DNA of 63,838 nucleotides, filler included, from Basidiobolus ranarum (taxonomy: Eukaryota): NCBI GenBank assembly GCA_040143965.1. It is 7 parts of 7 records of this genome, joined end to end, with 100 filler letters (N's around TTAATTAATTAA, not from the genome) between each part and the next. Parts side by side here need not be neighbours in the genome. Positions count along the whole stretch, not along the records: positions 27,433 to 36,464 come from JASJQH010000881.1; 6 more parts are not named here. The stretch is one strand, 5' to 3'. The notes under the pieces were generated by a model that was not told the origin of the DNA, made no database searches, and worked only from the letters and a program-made list of their open reading frames with translations. The position numbers were made by a program, and so were the translations under genes. Of this stretch, positions 9,050 through 54,820 are shown piece by piece (the stretch's first letter is position 1; each line of letters starts with the position of its first letter).

Positions 9050-9149
9050 NNNNNNNNNNNNNNNNNNNNNNNNNNNNNNNNNNNNNNNNNNNNTTAATTA
9101 ATTAANNNNNNNNNNNNNNNNNNNNNNNNNNNNNNNNNNNNNNNNNNNN
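9050..9149. other. Artificial contig-join spacer (N44-TTAATTAATTAA-N44)
   Basis: Exactly 100 bp with a six-frame stop linker; identical at all six joins. Confidence 0.97.
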
Positions 9150-18193: not shown

Positions 18194-18293
18194 NNNNNNN
18201 NNNNNNNNNNNNNNNNNNNNNNNNNNNNNNNNNNNNNTTAATTAATTAANNNNNNNNNNNNNNNNNNNNNNNNNNNNNNNNNNNNNNNNNNNN
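18194..18293. other. Artificial contig-join spacer
   Basis: N44-TTAATTAATTAA-N44. Confidence 0.97.
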
Positions 18294-27332: not shown

Positions 27333-27432
27333 NNNNNNNNNNNNNNNNNNNNNNNNNNNNNNNNNNNNNNNNNNNNTTAATTAATTAANNNNNNNNNNNN
27401 NNNNNNNNNNNNNNNNNNNNNNNNNNNNNNNN
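27333..27432. other. Artificial contig-join spacer
   Basis: N44-TTAATTAATTAA-N44. Confidence 0.97.
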
Positions 27433-27614
27433 TAAGTTATTTTTAAGCATTTAGAGTACCATTCTAGGGTGCCTTAGATGCATGAATCTGCAGGGTAAGA
27501 AGCGACACCGAATTCATAGGTTGCTGAGTTTTATCTAGTCAAGCATCTTATTGTGGCATGCATTGATATCAGACTTGATAATGTGAATTGCCTGCGCGTG
27601 AACCACGATATCCT
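27433..27614 (+). repeat. 182-bp direct duplicate of 33385-33566 (3' end of the secreted Cys-repeat gene plus downstream DNA)
   Basis: Identical except for two substitutions; similarity stops abruptly after GATATCCT and runs leftward into the contig edge. Confidence 0.93.
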
Positions 27615-27843
27615 TGTATAACAATTCCGTAATTAGATCAAGTTAAAATTACTATAATCGTATTGATGAATTTAGATAAACGTTACTCCCGATTTGAAAA
27701 TATTTATTTATATCTTTAAAGAAAAATTTTCTTCCTCATAATATCTCAAATAATTAGACGTAGTTTTGAAAGGAAGTAGTAAGAGTTCGAAGCTAAATTT
27801 ACAGTGGACATTATTCATTAAGGGTAACTAAGAATCCAATTGT

Positions 27844-30359
27844 TTAGTTGTTAGCTTCAGACATTTTGTTCAAAGCAGAACCGGCCTTGAACCATTCAAT
27901 TTGATTCTCATTGAATGTGTGATTTACTGGGATTTCAAGGGATTCACCGTTATCACGTTGAATACGGAGTGCCAAAGGCTTACCAGGAGTGAAAGTGGTA
28001 AGACCAACAATAGACACCTTATCGGAAGGTTGGATTTTTTCATAGTCAGCAGGATTAGCGAAAGTCAAAGGAAGAACACCTTGCTTCTTCAAGTTGGTTT
28101 CGTGGATACGTGCGAAGGACTTGACAATAACAGCAATACCACCTAAATGACGAACCTCAAGAGCAGCGTGCTCACGGGATGAACCTTCACCGTAGTTTTC
28201 GTCACCAACTACAACCCAGTTGATTCCCTTAGCCTTGTAGTCTCTGGCAACGGCTGGGACGGCACCGAATTCGGTGGTCAATCTATTTTTAATATTGTTA
28301 ACTTCACCGTTTTCGGAGTTAACAGCACCAATCAACATATTGTTAGAGATGTTGTCCAAGTGACCACGGTACTTGAGCCAAGGACCAGCCATAGAAATGT
28401 GATCAGTGGTACACTTGCCCTTAACCTTGATCAACACTGGGAGGTTTTCGGCATCTTTGCCATCCCACTTGGTAAAGGGATCAAGAAGTTGCAATCTGTT
28501 GCTCTCAGGTGATACCTTAACTTCAACACCTGAACGATCCTCAGGGGGAGCTTGATAGGTATTTTCACCAGCATCATAACCGCGAGGAGGAAGTTCAGCA
28601 CCATGAGGAGGAGTGAACTTGAACTTTTTACCGTCAGCACCAGTAAGCTCATCGGTCAAAGGATTGAAGCGAAGATCACCAGCGAATGCCATGGCAGTGA
28701 CAAGCTCAGGAGAAGCGACGAAAGCATGAGTGGCAGGGTTGCCGTCGTTACGTCCGGTGAAGTTTCTGTTGTAAGAGGTGATGATAGAGTTTTTGTCACC
28801 TTTCTTGACATCCTGACGATCCCATTGACCAATGCAAGGACCACAGGCGTTGGCAAGAACGACACCACCGGCTTTATCAAACACATCAATTTGTCCATCA
28901 CGAGCAATGGTAGCACGGATTTGTTCAGATCCTGGGGTAATAGTGAATTGAGATTTTACCTTAAGACCATGATCGAGTGCTTCTTGAGCAAGAGAAGCGG
29001 AACGGGACATATCCTCATATGAGGAGTTAGTGCAAGAACCAATAAGACCAACCTTTAAATCAGTGGGCCAGTTGTTCTTCTCTACGGCTTCCTTGAATTT
29101 GCTCAAAGGAGTGGCAAGATCTGGAGTGAAAGGACCGTTGATATGAGGTTCAAGTTCAGACAAATTGATTTCGATCACTTGATCATACTTGGCTCCCTCA
29201 TCAGCGCGAAGGTTGTGTGCAAACTCTTCGGATGATTTGGCGATATGTGGACGGCTGGTAGCACGAAGATAGTCACCCATACGTTTGTTGAAGGGGAAGA
29301 CTGAAGTAGTGGCACCAATTTCGGCACCCATGTTACAAATGGTAGCCATACCAGTGCAAGATAAGCTCTCAACACCTGAGCCGAAATATTCGACGATAGC
29401 ACCAGTACCACCCTTGACAGTTAAAATGCCAGCAACCTTAAGAATAACATCCTTGGCAGAGGTCCAACCACTAATTTGACCTGTCAATTTCACACCAATA
29501 ACCTTGGGGCACTTGAGTTCCCAAGGAATATCAGCCATAACATCAACAGCGTCGGCACCTCCTACACCAATAGCGCACATACCTAATCCACCACCATTGG
29601 GAGTATGAGAATCGGTACCAATCATAAGACCACCAGGGAAAGCATAATTTTCAAGAATGATCTGATGAATAATTCCAGATCCTGGCTTCCAGAAACCGAG
29701 ACCATATTTGGCAGTAGCAGTAGCAAGGAAATCGTAAACTTCCTTGTTAATGTCTTTAGCTCTAGCCAAATCCTTGGGGCCACCTAATTGCGCTTCAATC
29801 AAATGGTCACAGTGAACAGTGGATGGAACGGCAACAGTAGGCAGACCAGCGGACATGAATTGCAAAAGTGCCATTTGGGCGGTAGCATCTTGACAAGCAA
29901 CACGATCGGGTCTGAGCTTCAAATAGGAAGATCCGCGTTCAATATCTTGGTTCTTGGCGTCATCCAAGTGACCATAAATAATCTTTTCGGCAAGAGTGAG
30001 AGGATGGTTCAAGCTAAGATAATTCATGAAATGTTTTGTGAGTGGAGACCCCAAATAAACGAAAAATCAAATACCTACCGGTTTCTAATGATTGCCAAGT
30101 TATCCTCGATTCTTTGGTAGTTGATGTACTTCTCCTTCTCCAAGTTAGAAATGGATACTTTCTGAGGTGCAATCCCACCAACAGAAGTAGCAAGACCTCT
30201 GGAGGAAATGGCTTGGCGTACTGAAGGAGTAAAGCTCTGGTAAAAAAAGAGAAGGATATGTTAGCTCCATTATGTAGATAAAACTAGGTATTAACAAATA
30301 GAAGGCTCTGGGTCAAATGAACATACTTTAGCAGCACGACTGAAAGTAGATAACACCAT
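27844..30359 (-). CDS. ACO1: Mitochondrial aconitate hydratase (3 exons)
   Basis: Presequence [77 protein letters not shown]; strong codon bias. Confidence 0.97.
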
Positions 30360-32320
30360 TTTGGATTGGTGACGGAGCAAAGGGAAAGAGGATGTGGAGA
30401 ATGGATGTGGGGTTAGCCTTTTTGTATGTTTTTCGGTTCGGGATCAAGCCACCAATCACTTTGGATTGGAAGAAATTTTCAATGCATTCCACCAGCAGAG
30501 TCATTGGGATACAACACCTTACCATACATATAGCATTCATACCAGGTATAAATGGTATATATACTTTGAATAATAGGGATTAATACAAAACGAGCTATCT
30601 TGTCATTAAGTAACTAGGTGTCCAGGTGTCAGTGTAGTAAATCTGGATCATCTTCGATATATTTAAACAATTTGATCAGTATAGCCGTAGTTGTTCATCC
30701 GTCGGGTTCACTGAAAGGTTTACGGAGTCAACCATGAACCATTATGTAGCTTCCCGTTTTGATAGATCATCAACAATCATCCGACTACGTCTTGTACATC
30801 CCGAAACCTCATAATCCTTAAATTTTTCCTATGAGGACCGAAATTAGGGATGCTGCACAGCAATTTTGGTTCGGATCCGTAGGAATCCTTTTCCCAGGAG
30901 ATCGAGGCATGAATCCACATCAGTAATCTTATGTGGGGAAGAGTAATGAGCGCGGATCTTGTTGAATTCTTGAGGAATTTCAACGCTCCGGAGAATCCTA
31001 TAAGTTGTCTTTGGTGAGTTCAGGATCGAATATTAGCTGCAGTCGTCGCAACAGCCCAAAGGTCATTATAGCCAACAGCAAAGTAAGCACGTGAGATGAT
31101 GACAAAGTATAAATCTCCATACATTAGTTTGCTAAAGATCCGGAATCGACAGGGGTTCAGTAACAAACGATTTAGCAACCCTCCGATTATGGGTTTGTGC
31201 TACGAGTGGTTTTCCAATCGGTAGCTAGAGACCATATGGAACGAAGTGTATGTCTATTTGTGTAATAGAGTCTTGTCGAACGATGTGCTCATTATTCAAG
31301 CAACCTGTTTAGTGAGCTTGATATTCAAACCCTGTATGCTCAGTCCTTCACCAGATGATCCGTGTCAACTGAGAATAAGTGAATTCAGTATCCGCTCCTG
31401 TGAACAAAACAATGAGCATCAGCTCATAATGTCCCCAAAATACGTTCAATTTCCCCATAGGATTATCCAAGGGTTCGGAGCTGTTGTCGTTCGTAATATC
31501 GCGGGGCAGAATGTCAGCACGTAACTAGAATGCTTCCTGGTCTGCTGATTGTGGTCACGTTCATTTAATAACAGCGCATTTGATATTCACATGCACAAAA
31601 GGAATAAATTGTACAAGCTAAAATGAGCATGAACTCTGCCAGCCTGATCTCGCCAAATGCTTGCACGATCGTGTAAACAGGTAGGAGGTATTCCTAGGGT
31701 AGTAAATCGGTTTCTCACCTAAAACTCAGTACGGTCGGAATCCGAATCAAAATTCTTCTTGAAATGGTACAAAACTGGGGCTCGATGCCGAGTTTCCTTA
31801 CTAGGAATTATGCTGTCTAACCCAAATTTGTAATCTCACAAACTGATTTCTCACCTCAGTTGCTAGAGCGGTTCGGCTAATATGTGATCAGGAATGGACA
31901 CTATCTTAGTTACCTTTTATAGGCTATATTGTCAATAGTTGAAGACAAGATCCGCCACCATGTCCATGTCTGAGGCATTGAATCAAACTGAATGTAATGG
32001 ATAATAAACATTAGAGTCGTATCATGGGTGTGAATCGCTCAGATGAATTTCCACCGATACAGCAGTTTCGGATAAAATATTGTCAGCTCACATTAACCTG
32101 CGATGGCGCCCCAGATCATTGCCGATGAGCTGAATTTTCTCGCGTGTATGATTTGTTTGACGCTTCATAGATTTGCCATTCATCTTAATGTGATCCGCCG
32201 CAACCATTCAAAATCGTGATCATCAGCAGCACTCGGCGCTAGCCGATTCTGTCACATGATAGAAGCATGCTAGTGAACTAAAATTGAACATTCCATAATT
32301 TGTCATCAGAATCGATTTAG

Positions 32321-33034
32321 GTACTGAAACTCCTCTTCTAAAGCAAGAGACTTTGACTTTGCGCCACCGCCACCCTTCTTCTTGGTATTGTGGTTTTACT
32401 TTAACACCAACATACCTACACCATCTGTATACATCATACCTCTAAACTTCATTGACTTGCTTTTTCCTTGTGGTTTCCTTGTCTTTGATGTGAGGTCAAT
32501 AACAGTTCCCCATACTATTTCTTTATCCAAGTGGCTGGTGATAGAATTTTCCAAGATTCAAGTATTTAAAATATACATGTCAATTACCATGTAGGATAGT
32601 ATGAGGCTTTTTCTTAACGGAAAACAGTTGAATGGCTTGTTTTGGAGAGCTTTGTACATGCTTGACAGTCTCGCATACGCCTTTATATGCTTGAAAGGGT
32701 TGTTTTTGCACTGAAAGTACTTATTCCGATACTTGGGTATTAGATCTTTGGAGGCTCTTGATTCTGTTAAAGCTTTCTGTTTGCCTGGCTTGTAGTTATT
32801 GAGGAGTGACAAAAAGACTTCTTTAAAACAGCCAATATTAATGCAAGCCTCCAAAAGAAACTCAGGATCAGCTTCCAGTTCATGGGTAAAGATGTACTTC
32901 AAAAAGGAAAACGTATGAGACACAAAAGTATGAACGTTAGCTATAAGTGACATGAGTAGTGGAACGGATTGTGGCTTCTAACCAATACCAGCAAGTGAGC
33001 TTTTGACTGCTACAATCGCTAGAGGTGGTTCCAT
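32321..33034 (-). pseudogene. Decayed Fanzor (eukaryotic TnpB/Cas12-like) gene: N-terminal and pre-RuvC parts only
   Basis: Reading through a frameshift and stops (32978, 32558, 32396) gives GIG*KP...VHTFVSHTFSFLKYIFTHEL...FKEVFLSL...CKNNPFKHIKAYARL...FNCFPLRKSLILSYMVID...KFRGMMYTDGVG...KKKGG...EEEFQY, which matches motifs I recall from Mucoromycota Fanzor1 proteins just before RuvC-I. No search was run. Confidence 0.72.
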
Positions 33035-33063
33035 AAAGAGAAAAAGTGAATTGCCCTCTCTTT

Positions 33064-33371
33064 TAGTTTACGGATAGAAAGGTTTGCTAAGCATATACTC
33101 TCAAAAAATATCTGATGAGTTACAGCAATGAATCACACAATTTGTCTACAGTTGTTTTGTTCACTTATCTCATAGTTGTCTTATTACATTTGCTTAGGTA
33201 AGTGGCTTAGTTCAGCTGGATTTGGTGGATTTGACAGATTCATTTGTGACAAGGTTCAAGGTTAGTGGCTTAGGCATGAGAACGAATGCTAACATGAGAG
33301 TGTAGTTTACAGATAGAAGAGTATGCTAAGCATATACTCTCAAAAAAACTGATGAGTTACAGCAATGAATC
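33064..33371. repeat. Two ~70-bp direct repeats with a hairpin, upstream of the Fanzor relic
   Basis: 33064-33134 and 33303-33371 share TAGTTTAC.GATAGAA...TGCTAAGCATATACTCTCAAAAAA...CTGATGAGTTACAGCAATGAATC; copy 2 folds as GAGTATGC-TAA-GCAT(AT)ACTC. Confidence 0.8.
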
Positions 33372-33486
33372 TATTGACCAAGTCTAAGTTATTTTTAAGC
33401 ATTTAGAGTACCATTCTAGGGTGCCTTAGATGCATGAATCTGCAGGGTAAGAAGCGACACCGAATTCATAGGTTGCTGAGTTTTAT

Positions 33487-34557
33487 CTAGTCAAGTATCT
33501 TATTGTGGCATGCATTGATATCAGACTTGATAATGTGAATTGCCTGCGCGTGAGCCACGATATCCTGGCATTCCATTGTATCTATATCATCTTTGGTTAA
33601 TCCGCTATCGATTTTAAGTGTGGAGCACACGACATCATCCACGTCAATACCGAAGACACGAAGCCTAGTGTTTATAACTTGACATTCTGAATACTTTGTT
33701 CGCTCTGGTTTTCGAATGCTATTGGAGGCCAACGAGTTTCTTTGGCAAATGTTCGTCTCATTTTTAAGAATTCTAAGAGCTTTAGCATGAGCTACGATCT
33801 CATCACATGTCATTTTATTAATGACTTCTCTGGAAGGCCCGCTCACTATTTTTATATCAAGACAGGCTTTCATGTCTGCTTTATAGCCCAGATCGTGTAG
33901 CCTTGAGGCGATATTAGGACAAACGCTATCGCCATCTTCTTTCTCAAGAAGGCCTAGCTTACGGTTAAGAAATGGGTTTTGGTTATCACTTATTCCAACG
34001 ACAACACCACGACAGATACTGCTGCTTAACTTTAGCCCCATCTTCTGAGCCAATTTTACCAGGTCGTGGCAGGTTAGGTTAGAGATATTTGCGTCATTTA
34101 TGATGTTGTTGAGAACGTCTTTTGGCTTCTGGTTAGTTGTGATTTTAGAGCAAACTAGTGGATCGATTCTAGCATGGAAGGGTTTAAGCCTTTCAATTAG
34201 TTCATTACAGTGACCTTCATATTTGCGGACGATATCCTCAAGACTCTGGCCATTGACTACGTCGGTTGAGCAAATACCAGCATCCGTCTGGATACCTCGT
34301 TCCTTTACTCGAGCAACAAGCTCATGGCACTGGAGCCCTGTTGGATTCACAGATTTAGTGCTTGCATTGATTATTTCGAGAATATCAGCACACTTCTCAG
34401 GGAGAATGTTTGCTTTATATCGGGCATTTAGTTGGGACACCATTTCTTGACAGTATTTTATCTCAGTCGAGAGAGTGTATCCTCTCTCCACCACGTAACC
34501 TGAAGCAAGGATAGTATTAGAGATGATTAAGAGGAGGTTATTAGCGGTTAGGTGCAT
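33487..34557 (-). CDS. Putative secreted protein with eight Cys-x18/19-Cys repeats, family unknown
   Basis: Intronless 356-aa ORF with a short hydrophobic N-terminus, 16 regularly paired Cys, and an upstream TATA-like TTATAA. Confidence 0.8.
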   Translation of the reverse strand: MHLTANNLLLIISNTILASGYVVERGYTLSTEIKYCQEMVSQLNARYKANILPEKCADILEIINASTKSVNPTGLQCHELVARVKERGIQTDAGICSTDVVNGQSLEDIVRKYEGHCNELIERLKPFHARIDPLVCSKITTNQKPKDVLNNIINDANISNLTCHDLVKLAQKMGLKLSSSICRGVVVGISDNQNPFLNRKLGLLEKEDGDSVCPNIASRLHDLGYKADMKACLDIKIVSGPSREVINKMTCDEIVAHAKALRILKNETNICQRNSLASNSIRKPERTKYSECQVINTRLRVFGIDVDDVVCSTLKIDSGLTKDDIDTMECQDIVAHAQAIHIIKSDINACHNKILD

Positions 34558-35388
34558 GCTTGCGGTCGGTCTTGTGGAGAAGAGAAGTTACTGGTGTGAC
34601 ATATGGTTGGAATGGGCTTATAAGCTTTCATTAAAATGAGTTGATCTAACCAAACTCCTCTAAAAGCTTGCATCCATTATCTTTAATCACCGATGCAAGT
34701 CTAATTGTACTCTTATTGTGGAGCAACCGTGTAATAATCATTCCATTGGAGTAAAGTCAACTCCACAGCTGCAATGATTCATTTTGTACTAGCATCATTG
34801 TTATCTTGCAGTACTCCTGCTTGAATTAATGATTAGCCATCCACTGCATACTTGCGTATTTTATCTTCGCGCATTAATGCTGATTTATTTCAAGAGCATT
34901 CATCGTGTCATCTCCGAGAGCATGGCATCATGGCCTGTCTACATAATGGCCCAGGAAGGTAGTGCAGACTAAATGGGAAGCAAAGTTAGACATTGCCAGC
35001 AAGCGCTTATAGGAAACTGATTGATTGGAAAATCCTATATCATGGTTACCATATTTGTAAATGGATGACTAAATTTGCAGTCAGAAACTAAGCTGAATAT
35101 GGCTTCCTCATTTCACATGCAACAATTGGGATGCCGAGGAGTTCACTCATTGATAGTTGCGATTAGCCATGTTTGCATCTTTTTTTTTCTCGTTCAATAG
35201 GGATAAAAAAACGATCTACGATGGCCTGATTGATTGAGGAATTCTCGCTAGTATTTCCATCAGTTCCTTATCCCCCTCCCATTCACCTTGGACTTTTTCA
35301 ATCAGATTCATCTTATTGATTTACACAATTTGATATTTATATCATTCTGACGAATTCCTTTAATTGTCCATTATCAAAATACTTTGGC

Positions 35389-36464
35389 ATGCCCAAACAT
35401 ATTCCTGTATCAAATAAACCACGTATCTCGCACTCTTCCACACATACCGAAGTAAAATATTCTTCCGGTGGAAATTTTAAGAGGAATTGGATATGGGTTG
35501 ACAATTGTAAGTTAAGCGAAATGTCCCCCCTCCCTTGCGAAGTGAATCAAGCCTTCATGAATATCTGCCACTCACTCTTTGTTTTTGCCATTAGCTTTAG
35601 TAAGTGAACCGGAGGAGGAATTCACTCTAGTGAGTTACAATATTCTGGCTGATTATTTGGCATTCAGAAATAGACACTTATACTCATATTGCTCGAACTC
35701 GGTATTGACATGGTCCAACAGAGGACGTAAGATTTTGAAAGAGATTCAAGGTGGGCTTTCTCTTTGATACAAGTACAATTAGGCGAGGGGTTCTTTCTTG
35801 CATGCCAAACGTATACTTGGTTCCTTTGCTTTTCGAAATTCCTTACCTTTTTTCTTTCTAGCCTATAAAGCAGATATATATTGTCTACAAGTAAATATTC
35901 TCAGTTATTTTTCATGGATCGTTTTGGTTGGAAATTAACCTTTCATTGTAAGGAATGTGAAAAAAGGCACTTTCACTGTGAATTTGCGCCTACATTGAGA
36001 CGTCTGGGATACCGATACGTGTTTAAGCAACGCACTGGAGAAGATATGTGGGACGGATGCGCCATACTCATAAATACCAAGAGGTAAGGTTTATTGACTA
36101 GAATGGATGCTTGTTGGACCCAAGTCTAGCTAGATAGTTACCTATGGTGTTTATGCTAAATGACAAGTATTCTCTTTTCCTCCTTAGATTCGAATTGGTC
36201 AAGCAATGCTCTGTCGAATATAATAGCGATGAGTTTATGGATAGAAATAATGTTGGCCTTATAGTGGTCTTGAAGGATCTAAGTAAGTTCTATTGGTTTT
36301 ATTAGTGAGACACCATCTAGCAAGACTTTTCCTTTCGTTACCTAATACCATAGATTTTAGAAACCAATAGAAAGCTATGCGTTGCGAACACTCATATCCT
36401 GTTCAATACCAAACGAGGCATTCTCAAAATCGCCCAACTACACAAACTGTTGATGTCGGCATAC
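35389..36464 (+). CDS. Angel/CCR4-nocturnin family EEP phosphatase/nuclease; multi-exon, 3'-truncated
   Basis: Spliced motifs FTLVSYNILA, ADIYCLQE, DGCAI, RNNVGLIVVL, LCVANTHILFN.KRG.LKIAQL. Confidence 0.88.
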
Positions 36465-36564
36465 NNNNNNNNNNNNNNNNNNNNNNNNNNNNNNNNNNNN
36501 NNNNNNNNTTAATTAATTAANNNNNNNNNNNNNNNNNNNNNNNNNNNNNNNNNNNNNNNNNNNN
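36465..36564. other. Artificial contig-join spacer
   Basis: N44-TTAATTAATTAA-N44. Confidence 0.97.
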
Positions 36565-38853
36565 GGGTGATTTTAAACACCTCGAGCCGGAACTTGCCTA
36601 GAAATGTAACTATAATTCATGCTTATTCTCCAAGGACTCTGTGGGTAAGCTATTAGGGCTTCTCCACAAAGACGTTGCTTATGTAAAAAGGATAAGCATC
36701 ATTGGTAGTTATATGCAATCTGATGATCATTCTAGATGGACTGAGGCACATGCGCAAGCCGGCTACCTCCAGATTGTATTCATGAAGTGCGTAAACAGGT
36801 CTTTCGTGTAAATTCTCTCAACTGGCTCCTGATTTGACTTTGCTACAGATGAGTCATTCCCTCACGGCTCTCGAAAACTACTATGACAAATGGATCATCC
36901 ATTAGGAAAGCGGAGTTCTTTATGGAACATGAACAGTTGATTCATATCATATGAATCCCCTCAGGTGAGTTATGTACCAAATGAGCCCCAGTTTCTTGGA
37001 TTTTAAGTTTTGAATCTTGGAATGATCGATAGTTACGAAAATGTTAGAGCCTTGACCAAATTTAGGGAAATCATAGCAATCATAGAAAGTTCTGCCTCTG
37101 ATTGGGAAACAGTGTAAATTTGGGTTTGTTTGCGCATCCCATAATTTATCTAGTGCTCACAAAATGAACAAAACTGACCGCCCTTATCACGTCACTTATA
37201 ATTCACATGTTTACTACACTCTGTGGCCTTTCAAACGATTTAAGGACTCAATTTTTATGTAAACTAGAGCTGGGACAGTTACTCACCGTGATACCCTCAT
37301 TGTATGGGTTTGATGGTCTAAACTCTCGTCCAACATATTATTTATCTATCATCAATTAATTCTGAAAATCAAGAGTAGTGTTTCCGATTGGCCATGTGAT
37401 ATTCATTCTGTCACACTAGATCCATTTCATGAAAAAGTTTAGTTTGCTACTCTACAGATGTTGCTTAAAGCACTACTGTTGACTGGGAGCCAAGGCAATT
37501 GTGAACCTACTAACGGCTGGATGTAGCTTGGCAGTGTCAAGTATTGATATACAACTGATAGCTTCGTATTGAAATCTAATTATTGTATTATAAAGTCTGC
37601 GAAGAGAGAAATGAATTAAGCCCGAGAATCTGAATATCAGATTATAGGCTCAGGGTTGTGCTGACATTCTAGATAGGTTACGGATAACTAAGATGGTGTT
37701 GACTATGAGGAATATTAGAGCAATGAGGATAGAGTAAACACAGCCATTAGGAATATTCGATGAGTTGAGTAAAGTCTAGATAATCCGAGTTAATGATTGT
37801 CTTTTGAAAGTATGCGTGCTACAATTTACCCCGTATGAAGCTCCAAAATGAGTGATAATCACCCATATAAATAGATAAGAAGACTTCGAGCCAACTAAGC
37901 CCTCAAATGTAAGCATCATCCAGGTAATATGAAGTAGAGTGAATAGAGCCGTAATGATAGCTGATGATTAATTAGAGTAGTATTAGTGTCATTCTTGTGA
38001 AGTTGAAGGAGTGTATAAATACCAGAAACAAAATATAGTGATACTGAAGGACAGGATATACAGGGCAACATCCCTGGACCTAGCGCCTCAGCTAAAAGAG
38101 TAATATAGCTAACCAGCCCGCTAACCCATCCGAAACCCAAACCAGTTACTAAAAAGATGCTTAGTTGCGGTTAAGTTTTTCAGAAAAGTTATGAAAGGAG
38201 TATACCAAAAGCATAAGAGTGCTTGTTGAGGGGAGATTTCGGGTTTTTTGAGACGACGTTTAGGCCGCTCTCAGCACGTCTATGAAAGACTGAGTGTCAG
38301 AGATAATTTATACTTCTTAGTTTAAAAAGGCAACGATTTACCTCATAAGTATATAGAAAAGGACTCTGAAGCTCTCTTGAAGCAATACACTGTAGAAGAT
38401 GGTGACTGCATGGTTTGATTGTGCAGGTTTGGCAACATACCATATCAAAGAAGTGAACAATATCGATATCAGCCAAAAGAATGCACTACATATGGAGTGA
38501 TAAGTGAATGTCTATATATATGGTAATTTTCAGTAAAACCAAGTAAAGCCTATTTTGAAGTATACCTCGTCATCATTAGTAGTACTAGCTGAGCATTTCG
38601 AGCAACATAAAGGATAAATATACAGCTGGGCGGTCCATATGCTGTTAGCATACAACCGATGAAAGATAACCAACCCATTTAGCGTATCGTAGAAGTTGCT
38701 CTCTCCTTCATAGCTCTGCAATTTTATTCAAGCATTCCTGGTCACAATTTAATATCGACTTGTGATTTCAGAATTGCATAGATTTCAGATGAGGGAGCTT
38801 GGGATCAGTTACCCAACATTAATAAAATTTCAGGTATGTAACAGGATATTATA

Positions 38854-45594: not shown

Positions 45595-45694
45595 NNNNNN
45601 NNNNNNNNNNNNNNNNNNNNNNNNNNNNNNNNNNNNNNTTAATTAATTAANNNNNNNNNNNNNNNNNNNNNNNNNNNNNNNNNNNNNNNNNNNN
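45595..45694. other. Artificial contig-join spacer
   Basis: N44-TTAATTAATTAA-N44. Confidence 0.97.
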
Positions 45695-54720: not shown

Positions 54721-54820
54721 NNNNNNNNNNNNNNNNNNNNNNNNNNNNNNNNNNNNNNNNNNNNTTAATTAATTAANNNNNNNNNNNNNNNNNNNNNNNN
54801 NNNNNNNNNNNNNNNNNNNN
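54721..54820. other. Artificial contig-join spacer
   Basis: N44-TTAATTAATTAA-N44. Confidence 0.97.

Follow-up and report, generated by a model that had tools for sequence, protein, structure and literature searches.

Analysis of a 63,838-nucleotide stretch of DNA from Basidiobolus ranarum (NCBI GenBank assembly GCA_040143965.1), referred to here at its full length as the window, identified a broken copy of a Fanzor1 gene on the minus strand at positions 33034..32309. Fanzor1 is a eukaryotic, transposon-borne, omegaRNA-guided RuvC endonuclease that is related to TnpB and Cas12. Judged from its sequence, the segment is Fanzor1 by descent; it is very probably a dead fragment of a Fanzor1 family of B. 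ranarum, with the history proposed below. The window consists of seven pieces (9049, 9044, 9039, 9032, 9030, 9026, and 9018 bp) joined by spacers of the form N44, TTAATTAATTAA, N44 at 9050-9149, 18194-18293, 27333-27432, 36465-36564, 45595-45694, and 54721-54820. The pieces are contigs of a fragmented assembly, arranged by decreasing length, and features on different pieces are not genomic neighbours. The relic lies on the piece at 27433-36464, which is 9,032 bp long and contains no N. Its parts are given here in window positions, with P0002, a full-length homologue of 626 amino acids (aa) from Gilbertella persicaria, as the reference.

32309..33034, minus strand: whole Fanzor1 pseudogene relic, from the native start MEPPL... 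to the end of all similarity
32711..33034, minus strand: N-terminal block, corresponding to P0002 residues 1-108 (tblastn, 50% identity, E 7e-28)
32309..32719, minus strand: second block, just upstream of RuvC-I, corresponding to P0002 residues 236-369 and family profile positions 237-372
32708..32716, minus strand: in-frame deletion junction ..YFQ/CKN.. (KYFQ/CKNNP)
32558..32953, minus strand: 131-aa open reading frame (ORF), the longest open part of the relic, with an internal Met start
32978..32980, minus strand: stop 1, TAG, codon 19; Trp in homologues
32558..32560, minus strand: stop 2, TGA, codon 159; Gln in homologues; terminates the 131-aa ORF
32396..32398, minus strand: stop 3, TAA, codon 213; Gln in homologues

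Reading frame and lesions of the relic

The minus strand from 33034 to 32321 translates as MEPPL...EEEFQY in a single frame that is crossed by three stops and contains no frameshift. Similarity continues for another 12 bases, to 32309 (EEEFQYLNRF against EEEFQYVEKL), where the alignments of P0002, P0004 (Rhizopus microsporus), and the B. ranarum proteins P0322 and P0327 all stop. This end lies about 18 residues upstream of the RuvC-I Asp (D390 of P0002), and the relic, whose start codon is native, retains about 235 of about 626 residues (about 38%). The three stops are nonsense mutations and not introns, because each falls on a residue conserved in the homologues (W, Q, and Q). Those at 32978-32980 and 32396-32398 each differ from the conserved codon by one C:G-to-T:A transition (TGG to TAG and CAA to TAA). 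We have the impression, from three sites in all, that these two stops would fit deamination of cytosines in a silenced repeat.

In tblastn searches of the window, the second block was recovered with P0002 as a high-scoring segment pair (HSP) at 32719-32318 (49% identity, E 1e-32) and with P0003 from Rhizopus arrhizus (69%, E 2e-45); it is also 74% identical to B. ranarum P0327 (E 4e-33). The N-terminal block is 72% identical to residues 1-107 of another B. ranarum protein, P0324 (E 1.4e-45). At the junction between the two blocks, the relic is short of about 127 codons when compared with P0002 (residues 109-235) and of about 130 when compared with P0324, and a Cys codon closes each of the parental deletion sites (YFQC-CSYEP and YYDC-KSNP in P0324). 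A family profile of length 662, built from 39 long homologues and run with all filters off against six frames of the whole window, matched at positions 6-108 (independent E 3.8e-20) and 237-372 (independent E 1.1e-44), with no intervening DNA at the junction to account for the profile gap 108-237.

Beyond these two blocks, the profile found nothing in any frame of the window, including the other six pieces. The 39 long homologues gave 66 tblastn HSPs, nine of them off the relic and each of those with an E of at least 0.088; weak HSPs around 42.4 kb from two homologues (E 0.97 and 2.0) were missed by the profile, lie on another contig, and were rejected. Neither method detected a RuvC or zinc-finger remnant anywhere in the window. 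The relic lacks the RuvC D...E...D triad and the C-terminal zinc-finger (TNB) domain, and the three in-frame stops and the deletion of about 127 codons leave it without an uninterrupted ORF. In solved structures of Fanzor1, the target-adjacent motif (TAM) and the guide are bound by the WED and REC domains, to part of which the relic would correspond. With these parts missing, it is presumably non-functional, inert DNA now.

The original prediction had read this strand as a dead Fanzor in a frame continuing through three stops and one frameshift, with five family motifs, a large internal deletion at KYFQ/CKNNP, and an end just before RuvC. The continuous frame and the three stops were recovered, and the frameshift was discarded, as a single frame suffices. 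All five motifs were located in the translation (HTFSFLKYIFTHEL, FKEVFLSL, KNNPFKHIKAYARL, FNCFPLRKSLILSYMVID, and FRGMMYTDGVG), and alignments to homologues place the deletion junction where it had been proposed. The copy does stop just before RuvC: IDPGRRD comes next in the full-length homologues, and the RuvC-I motif is also present in P0322 and P0327. The description of the copy as dead agrees with its three stops, its deletion, and the loss of all RuvC catalytic and zinc-finger residues.

The copy shows four kinds of lesion. The ancestor would have been a transposon-borne nuclease guided by an omegaRNA from the right end of the transposon (Saito et al., 2023, PMC10432273; Xu et al., 2024, PMC11423790). 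One lesion is a deletion that runs from one Cys codon to another and removed about 127 codons in frame. Another took away everything 3' of about codon 242, including the three RuvC catalytic residues and the zinc finger (TNB), and with it the usual site of the omegaRNA and the right transposon end. The three nonsense mutations at the conserved W, Q, and Q form a third kind, and general drift a fourth, as the amino-acid identity to the nearest paralogues is only 68-74%. Mucor flavus P0005, the unnamed P0099, and B. ranarum P0322 each carry their own, different internal deletion in roughly the same middle segment. Loss of the middle segment recurs in decayed copies of this Fanzor1 family.

The survival of a 131-aa ORF raises the question of whether it is a domesticated, expressed remnant with a nuclease-independent role such as nucleic-acid binding, and truncated Fanzor-like models are indeed often annotated as proteins in related genomes. 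We consider this very unlikely. The ORF begins at an internal Met after a nonsense mutation and spans the deletion junction, and homologous in-frame sequence continues past it with two more stops. In addition, no identical protein appeared in a search of proteins of 130-417 aa, and the paralogues are broken at other places, as neutral decay predicts.

Relationship to Fanzor1

The read-through peptide of the relic, with X at the stops, matched the solved structure of PpFz1, the Fanzor1 of Parasitella parasitica (PDB 9cf0), in two collinear blocks (phmmer E 1.1e-37) and that of SpuFz1, from Spizellomyces punctatus (8gkh), with E 3.7e-8. Full-length P0002 matched the same structures with E 4.5e-140 and 9.5e-39, in alignments that span both the N-terminal part and the RuvC/zinc-finger (TNB) part, and matched GtFz1 of Guillardia (9cer) with E 8.4e-7. 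A search of proteins of 418-2000 aa returned three matches among 1599 candidates, namely P0002 (E 4.2e-66), P0003 (69% identity to the relic), and P0004. In a HMMER search of 1.84 billion representative proteins, 264 matches had E<=1e-3, 79 had E<=1e-10, and five had E<=1e-30, the lowest E being 1.8e-44. Of 43 long homologues, 37 carry the hydrophobic-DP[GN] motif of RuvC-I and 25 carry the motif [TS][TSC]xxCxxC.

Several results weigh against the identification and need to be set beside these matches. Fanzor proteins have been described by the motif D-X(125,275)-[TS]-[TS]-X-X-[C4 zinc finger]-X(5,50)-RD (Bao and Jurka, 2013, PMC3627910), and only nine of the 43 long homologues satisfy a strict full-motif regular expression. 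The Cas12f1-like TNB model (PF07282) reaches E<=0.01 in 12 of the 43, all under the Pfam cut-off. Neither the 131-aa ORF nor the read-through peptide matches any Pfam family. Few long homologues pass the strict expression because many of these gene models are themselves decayed. A precomputed Pfam accession, PF26935.1, is attached to P0002, P0003, P0004, P0322, P0323, and P0327; the Pfam search made here did not return it.

The absence of a Pfam family on the relic is also what would be expected if the similarity were due to chance, or if another family shared only short motifs with Fanzor1. This explanation was already ruled out by the matches of P0002 and the relic to solved Fanzor1 structures, and its probability is close to nil: the relic matches a solved Fanzor1 with E 1.1e-37 across two collinear blocks, reaches 1.8e-44 among representative proteins, and is collinear with proteins whose sequence goes on through RuvC and the zinc finger. 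Descent from Fanzor1, which had been proposed from family motifs, is now supported by direct matches to solved PpFz1 and SpuFz1. The findings named in advance as fatal to the proposal were full-length homologues lacking a RuvC/zinc-finger region, or best matches to an unrelated family; instead, P0002 aligns with PpFz1 through both regions.

Comparison with characterized systems places the relic more precisely. PpFz1, for which structures 9cf0-9cf3 are available, is a sequence homologue; unlike the relic, it is complete and active as an omegaRNA-guided nuclease, and its N-terminus carries an additional extension (Xu et al., 2024, PMC11423790), whereas the relic retains about 38% of the protein, with no RuvC, no TNB, and no omegaRNA found. 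The relic is only about 33% identical to P0010, a PpFz1-like Rhizopus lineage, and SpuFz1 is much more distant in sequence. At SpuFz1 loci, inverted repeats of 30 nt are retained and an omegaRNA follows the ORF; neither feature was found at the relic. Of 42 S. punctatus loci with Fz genes, 19 carry full-length genes and the others partial ones (Saito et al., 2023, PMC10432273), so that a partial copy is the usual state of Fz. TnpB (of IS200/IS605 and IS607) and Cas12f share the ancestry of the RuvC/zinc-finger part of Fanzor, of which the relic retains nothing, and no direct match of the relic to TnpB or Cas12 was found.

Host, relatives, and origin of the copy

The host of the relic is Basidiobolus, a member of the phylum Basidiobolomycota, because an aconitase ORF on the same gap-free piece, 2.3 kb from the relic, is 100% identical to that of B. 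ranarum. Its identity to the aconitase of B. meristosporus is 94%, and to those of Rhizopus species 79-81%. The first searches gave some reason to suspect a Mucorales contaminant or a chimeric contig, since all organism-named matches were Mucorales, or Syncephalis for one distant cluster, and a 182-bp duplication involving the start of the contig shows that repeats shaped the assembly. Such an origin is highly improbable, given that the relic and the B. ranarum aconitase share one N-free piece with even GC content (0.39-0.46), that the three proteins nearest to the relic come from B. ranarum itself, lie on two other contigs, and form their own starred clade, and that the identity to any Rhizopus protein (at most 64-69%) is too low.

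These three proteins were found by the search at 130-417 aa, which gave seven matches among 266 candidates. P0322 (K7432_018652; 204 aa, 61% BLASTP identity) lies on a contig of 6,272 bp. P0324 (247 aa, 72%) and P0327 (179 aa, 77%) have the adjacent locus tags K7432_010856 and K7432_010857 and lie on the same 9,789-bp contig. All three share the host species and Fanzor1 subfamily of the relic, are likewise fragmentary, and fall in the starred clade. They differ from the relic in what they have kept: P0324 retains the segment that the relic has lost, P0322 and P0327 continue through RuvC-I (IDPGRRD / IDPGRHD), and the internal deletion of P0322 is a different one. The family is therefore multi-copy in the host genome, and the earlier suggestion that this genome hosts or hosted a Fanzor family is borne out by these three additional annotated fragments on two other contigs. 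As for the suggested link to Mucoromycota, the nearest relatives outside the host are Mucorales, and the host itself, judged from its aconitase, belongs to Basidiobolomycota.

No intact Fanzor1 copy is present among the annotated B. ranarum relatives found. The search at 418-2000 aa returned no Basidiobolus protein of at least 418 aa, which is weak evidence; pseudogenes are absent from protein collections. Intact copies, hypothetically, would be new programmable nuclease candidates. In the literature searched, which did not cover the supplements of the Jiang et al. survey, there is no mention of a Basidiobolus Fanzor, and the name Basidiobolus occurs 0 times in eight supplementary files of Saito et al. 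(2023, PMC10432273), some cells of which are incomplete.

The relatives outside the genus are largely Mucorales. An organism was named in 10 of 30 cluster look-ups, comprising eight Mucorales (Mucor flavus, Thamnidium, Helicostylum, three of Rhizopus, Backusella, and Mucor mucedo), one Syncephalis, and one B. ranarum. The closest named lineage outside the host is R. arrhizus G6F16_008848 (P0003), which is 64-69% identical to the relic. It and the Mucorales Fanzor1 proteins share motifs and architecture with the relic, and differ from it in belonging to another host phylum. In the P0003 gene model, the Fanzor1 fragment runs on into the beginning of ribosomal protein S24e (residues 510-549, Pfam E 2e-11), which is probably a gene-prediction artefact beside a transposon insertion. 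In a common alignment, P0003 is 70% identical to P0327 (178 columns), 66% to P0322 (204 columns), 59% to P0004 (494 columns), and 50% to P0002 (495 columns), and the Syncephalis protein is 35-40% identical to the B. ranarum, Rhizopus, and Gilbertella members.

Rows for the phylogenetic trees were picked by coverage and identity to the relic, together with all organism-named rows, and the remaining representatives were left out. A 59-row FastTree clade uniting N-only and C-only fragments was not trusted, as such rows do not overlap; for that reason, maximum-likelihood trees were built block by block, from 33 rows and 223 columns for the second block and from 29 rows and 247 columns for the N-terminal and middle block. 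In the second-block tree, the three Basidiobolus rows form one clade (99/96*) within a 15-row clade (100/98*) that holds Mucor flavus, Helicostylum, Gilbertella, R. microsporus, and R. arrhizus. The tree of the N-terminal and middle block agrees; there, the relic and P0324 are joined (88/90) within a larger clade of 18 rows (100/98*). When the five named Mucorales are constrained to form one group, the log-likelihood falls by 24.3 units, and the approximately unbiased (AU) test disfavours that arrangement (p-AU 0.040).

Basidiobolus is a genus already noted for horizontal gene uptake. The trees, and the fact that aconitase is only about 80% identical between the hosts, make it somewhat likelier that the Basidiobolus Fanzor1 family was acquired by horizontal transposon transfer than that it was inherited from a common ancestor. 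There is perhaps an even chance that the transposon crossed between Rhizopus-like Mucorales and Basidiobolus and then multiplied and decayed in Basidiobolus, of which the relic and its three sister fragments would be the remains. Several points count against a transfer. Support for the R. arrhizus P0003 group as sister is unstarred (84/78). The AU value is marginal, and the choice of the Mucorales group was made with the tree already in hand. The alignments are short, at 223 and 247 columns, and many neighbour rows are unnamed metagenome proteins that could come from either host. Transposon families can also retain old paralogous lineages.

Vertical inheritance from the common ancestor of Basidiobolus and Mucorales is a real possibility, if a somewhat less probable one; the closeness to Rhizopus would then arise from comparing orthologous with paralogous lineages. 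It draws support from the same unstarred sister relation and post hoc AU grouping, from the existence of a member in Syncephalis (Zoopagomycota), and from the wide occurrence of Fanzor1 in early-diverging fungi (Saito et al., 2023, PMC10432273; Bao and Jurka, 2013, PMC3627910). Against it, the Basidiobolus proteins are 66-70% identical to P0003, whereas R. arrhizus, R. microsporus, and Gilbertella are only 50-59% identical among themselves, and aconitase, among the most conserved of host enzymes, reaches only 79-81% between the hosts. Moreover, in two trees on different blocks, Basidiobolus falls within a starred clade in which every other named member belongs to Mucorales, and the Syncephalis protein is distant (36-40% identity). 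On this evidence, horizontal transfer is the reading that we prefer.

Flanking sequence and meaning of the relic

The surroundings of the relic were searched for the other parts of a Fanzor element. In known systems, the omegaRNA region lies downstream of the Fz ORF, near the right inverted repeat, and a 20-nt core is common to two Parasitella omegaRNAs (Saito et al., 2023, PMC10432273, and its supplement). This core had 0 matches with up to three mismatches, a weak negative in the absence of a subfamily model, and an Rfam search of 29000-37000 returned nothing relevant. An Rfam match to MIR319 at 36904-36997 was attributed to chance, as it scored 25.2 bits against a gathering score of 54 and lies on a different contig. 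Some Mucorales Fanzor1 elements have been assigned to the MuDR superfamily, with 9-bp target-site duplications (Bao and Jurka, 2013, PMC3627910). A carrier transposase such as Tc1/mariner or MuDR was sought in the six frames of 31001-32320, where 0 Pfam families were detected; a passing likeness of the string AMIWGAIAG to Tc1/mariner transposases was unsupported by Pfam and set aside.

Upstream of the relic, a direct repeat occurs in two copies, with no third copy in the window.

33064..33134, no strand assigned: proximal copy of the direct repeat, about 71 bp, 30 bp upstream of the relic ATG
33303..33371, no strand assigned: distal copy, 90% identical to the proximal copy and 239 bp apart from it

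These copies may represent 5' sequence of the Fanzor element that was duplicated. An imperfect 25-nt inverted repeat at 31720-31744 and 33461-33485 (72% complementary) was not adopted as the element ends; its right arm lies inside a duplicated 182-bp segment, beside the stop of a neighbouring gene. That segment is the first 182 bp of the contig (27433-27614), repeated directly at 33385-33566 with 98.9% identity, and the internal copy comprises the last ~80 bp of a neighbouring 356-aa ORF and ~100 bp past its stop. The duplication may come from a paralogous fragment of a gene, or may have been produced by the assembly at a repeat. The 356-aa ORF itself (33487-34557, minus strand) has a hydrophobic N-terminus and at least four Cys-framed units (e.g., MTCDEIVAHAKALRILKNETNIC and MECQDIVAHAQAIHIIKSDINAC). 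It looks like a secreted repeat protein, and Pfam gave only sub-threshold matches. A metagenome scan pointed to three loci through a 33-residue, 44% match, and these were judged spurious, since the family profile finds nothing there.

In sum, the relic is an ordinary genomic fossil with one oddity, namely that its closest relatives outside the host are found in Rhizopus-type moulds, which belong to a different phylum. Fanzor1 has long been known in Mucorales, with four families in R. oryzae, ten in Mucor circinelloides, and three in Phycomyces (Bao and Jurka, 2013, PMC3627910), and the Basidiobolus relic is a further, dead Fanzor1. Taken alone, it matters little, as the useful parts of a Fanzor (RuvC, zinc finger, and omegaRNA) are gone and partial genes are common. 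Documenting Fanzor1 in Basidiobolus goes modestly beyond routine annotation, and the position of the Basidiobolus copies within a Mucorales clade gives a testable indication that a transposon may have passed between fungal phyla. If this is true, the transfer would be a concrete, datable case of the spread of an RNA-guided nuclease from eukaryote to eukaryote, and less decayed or intact copies with their omegaRNA might persist in unsampled parts of the Basidiobolus genome.

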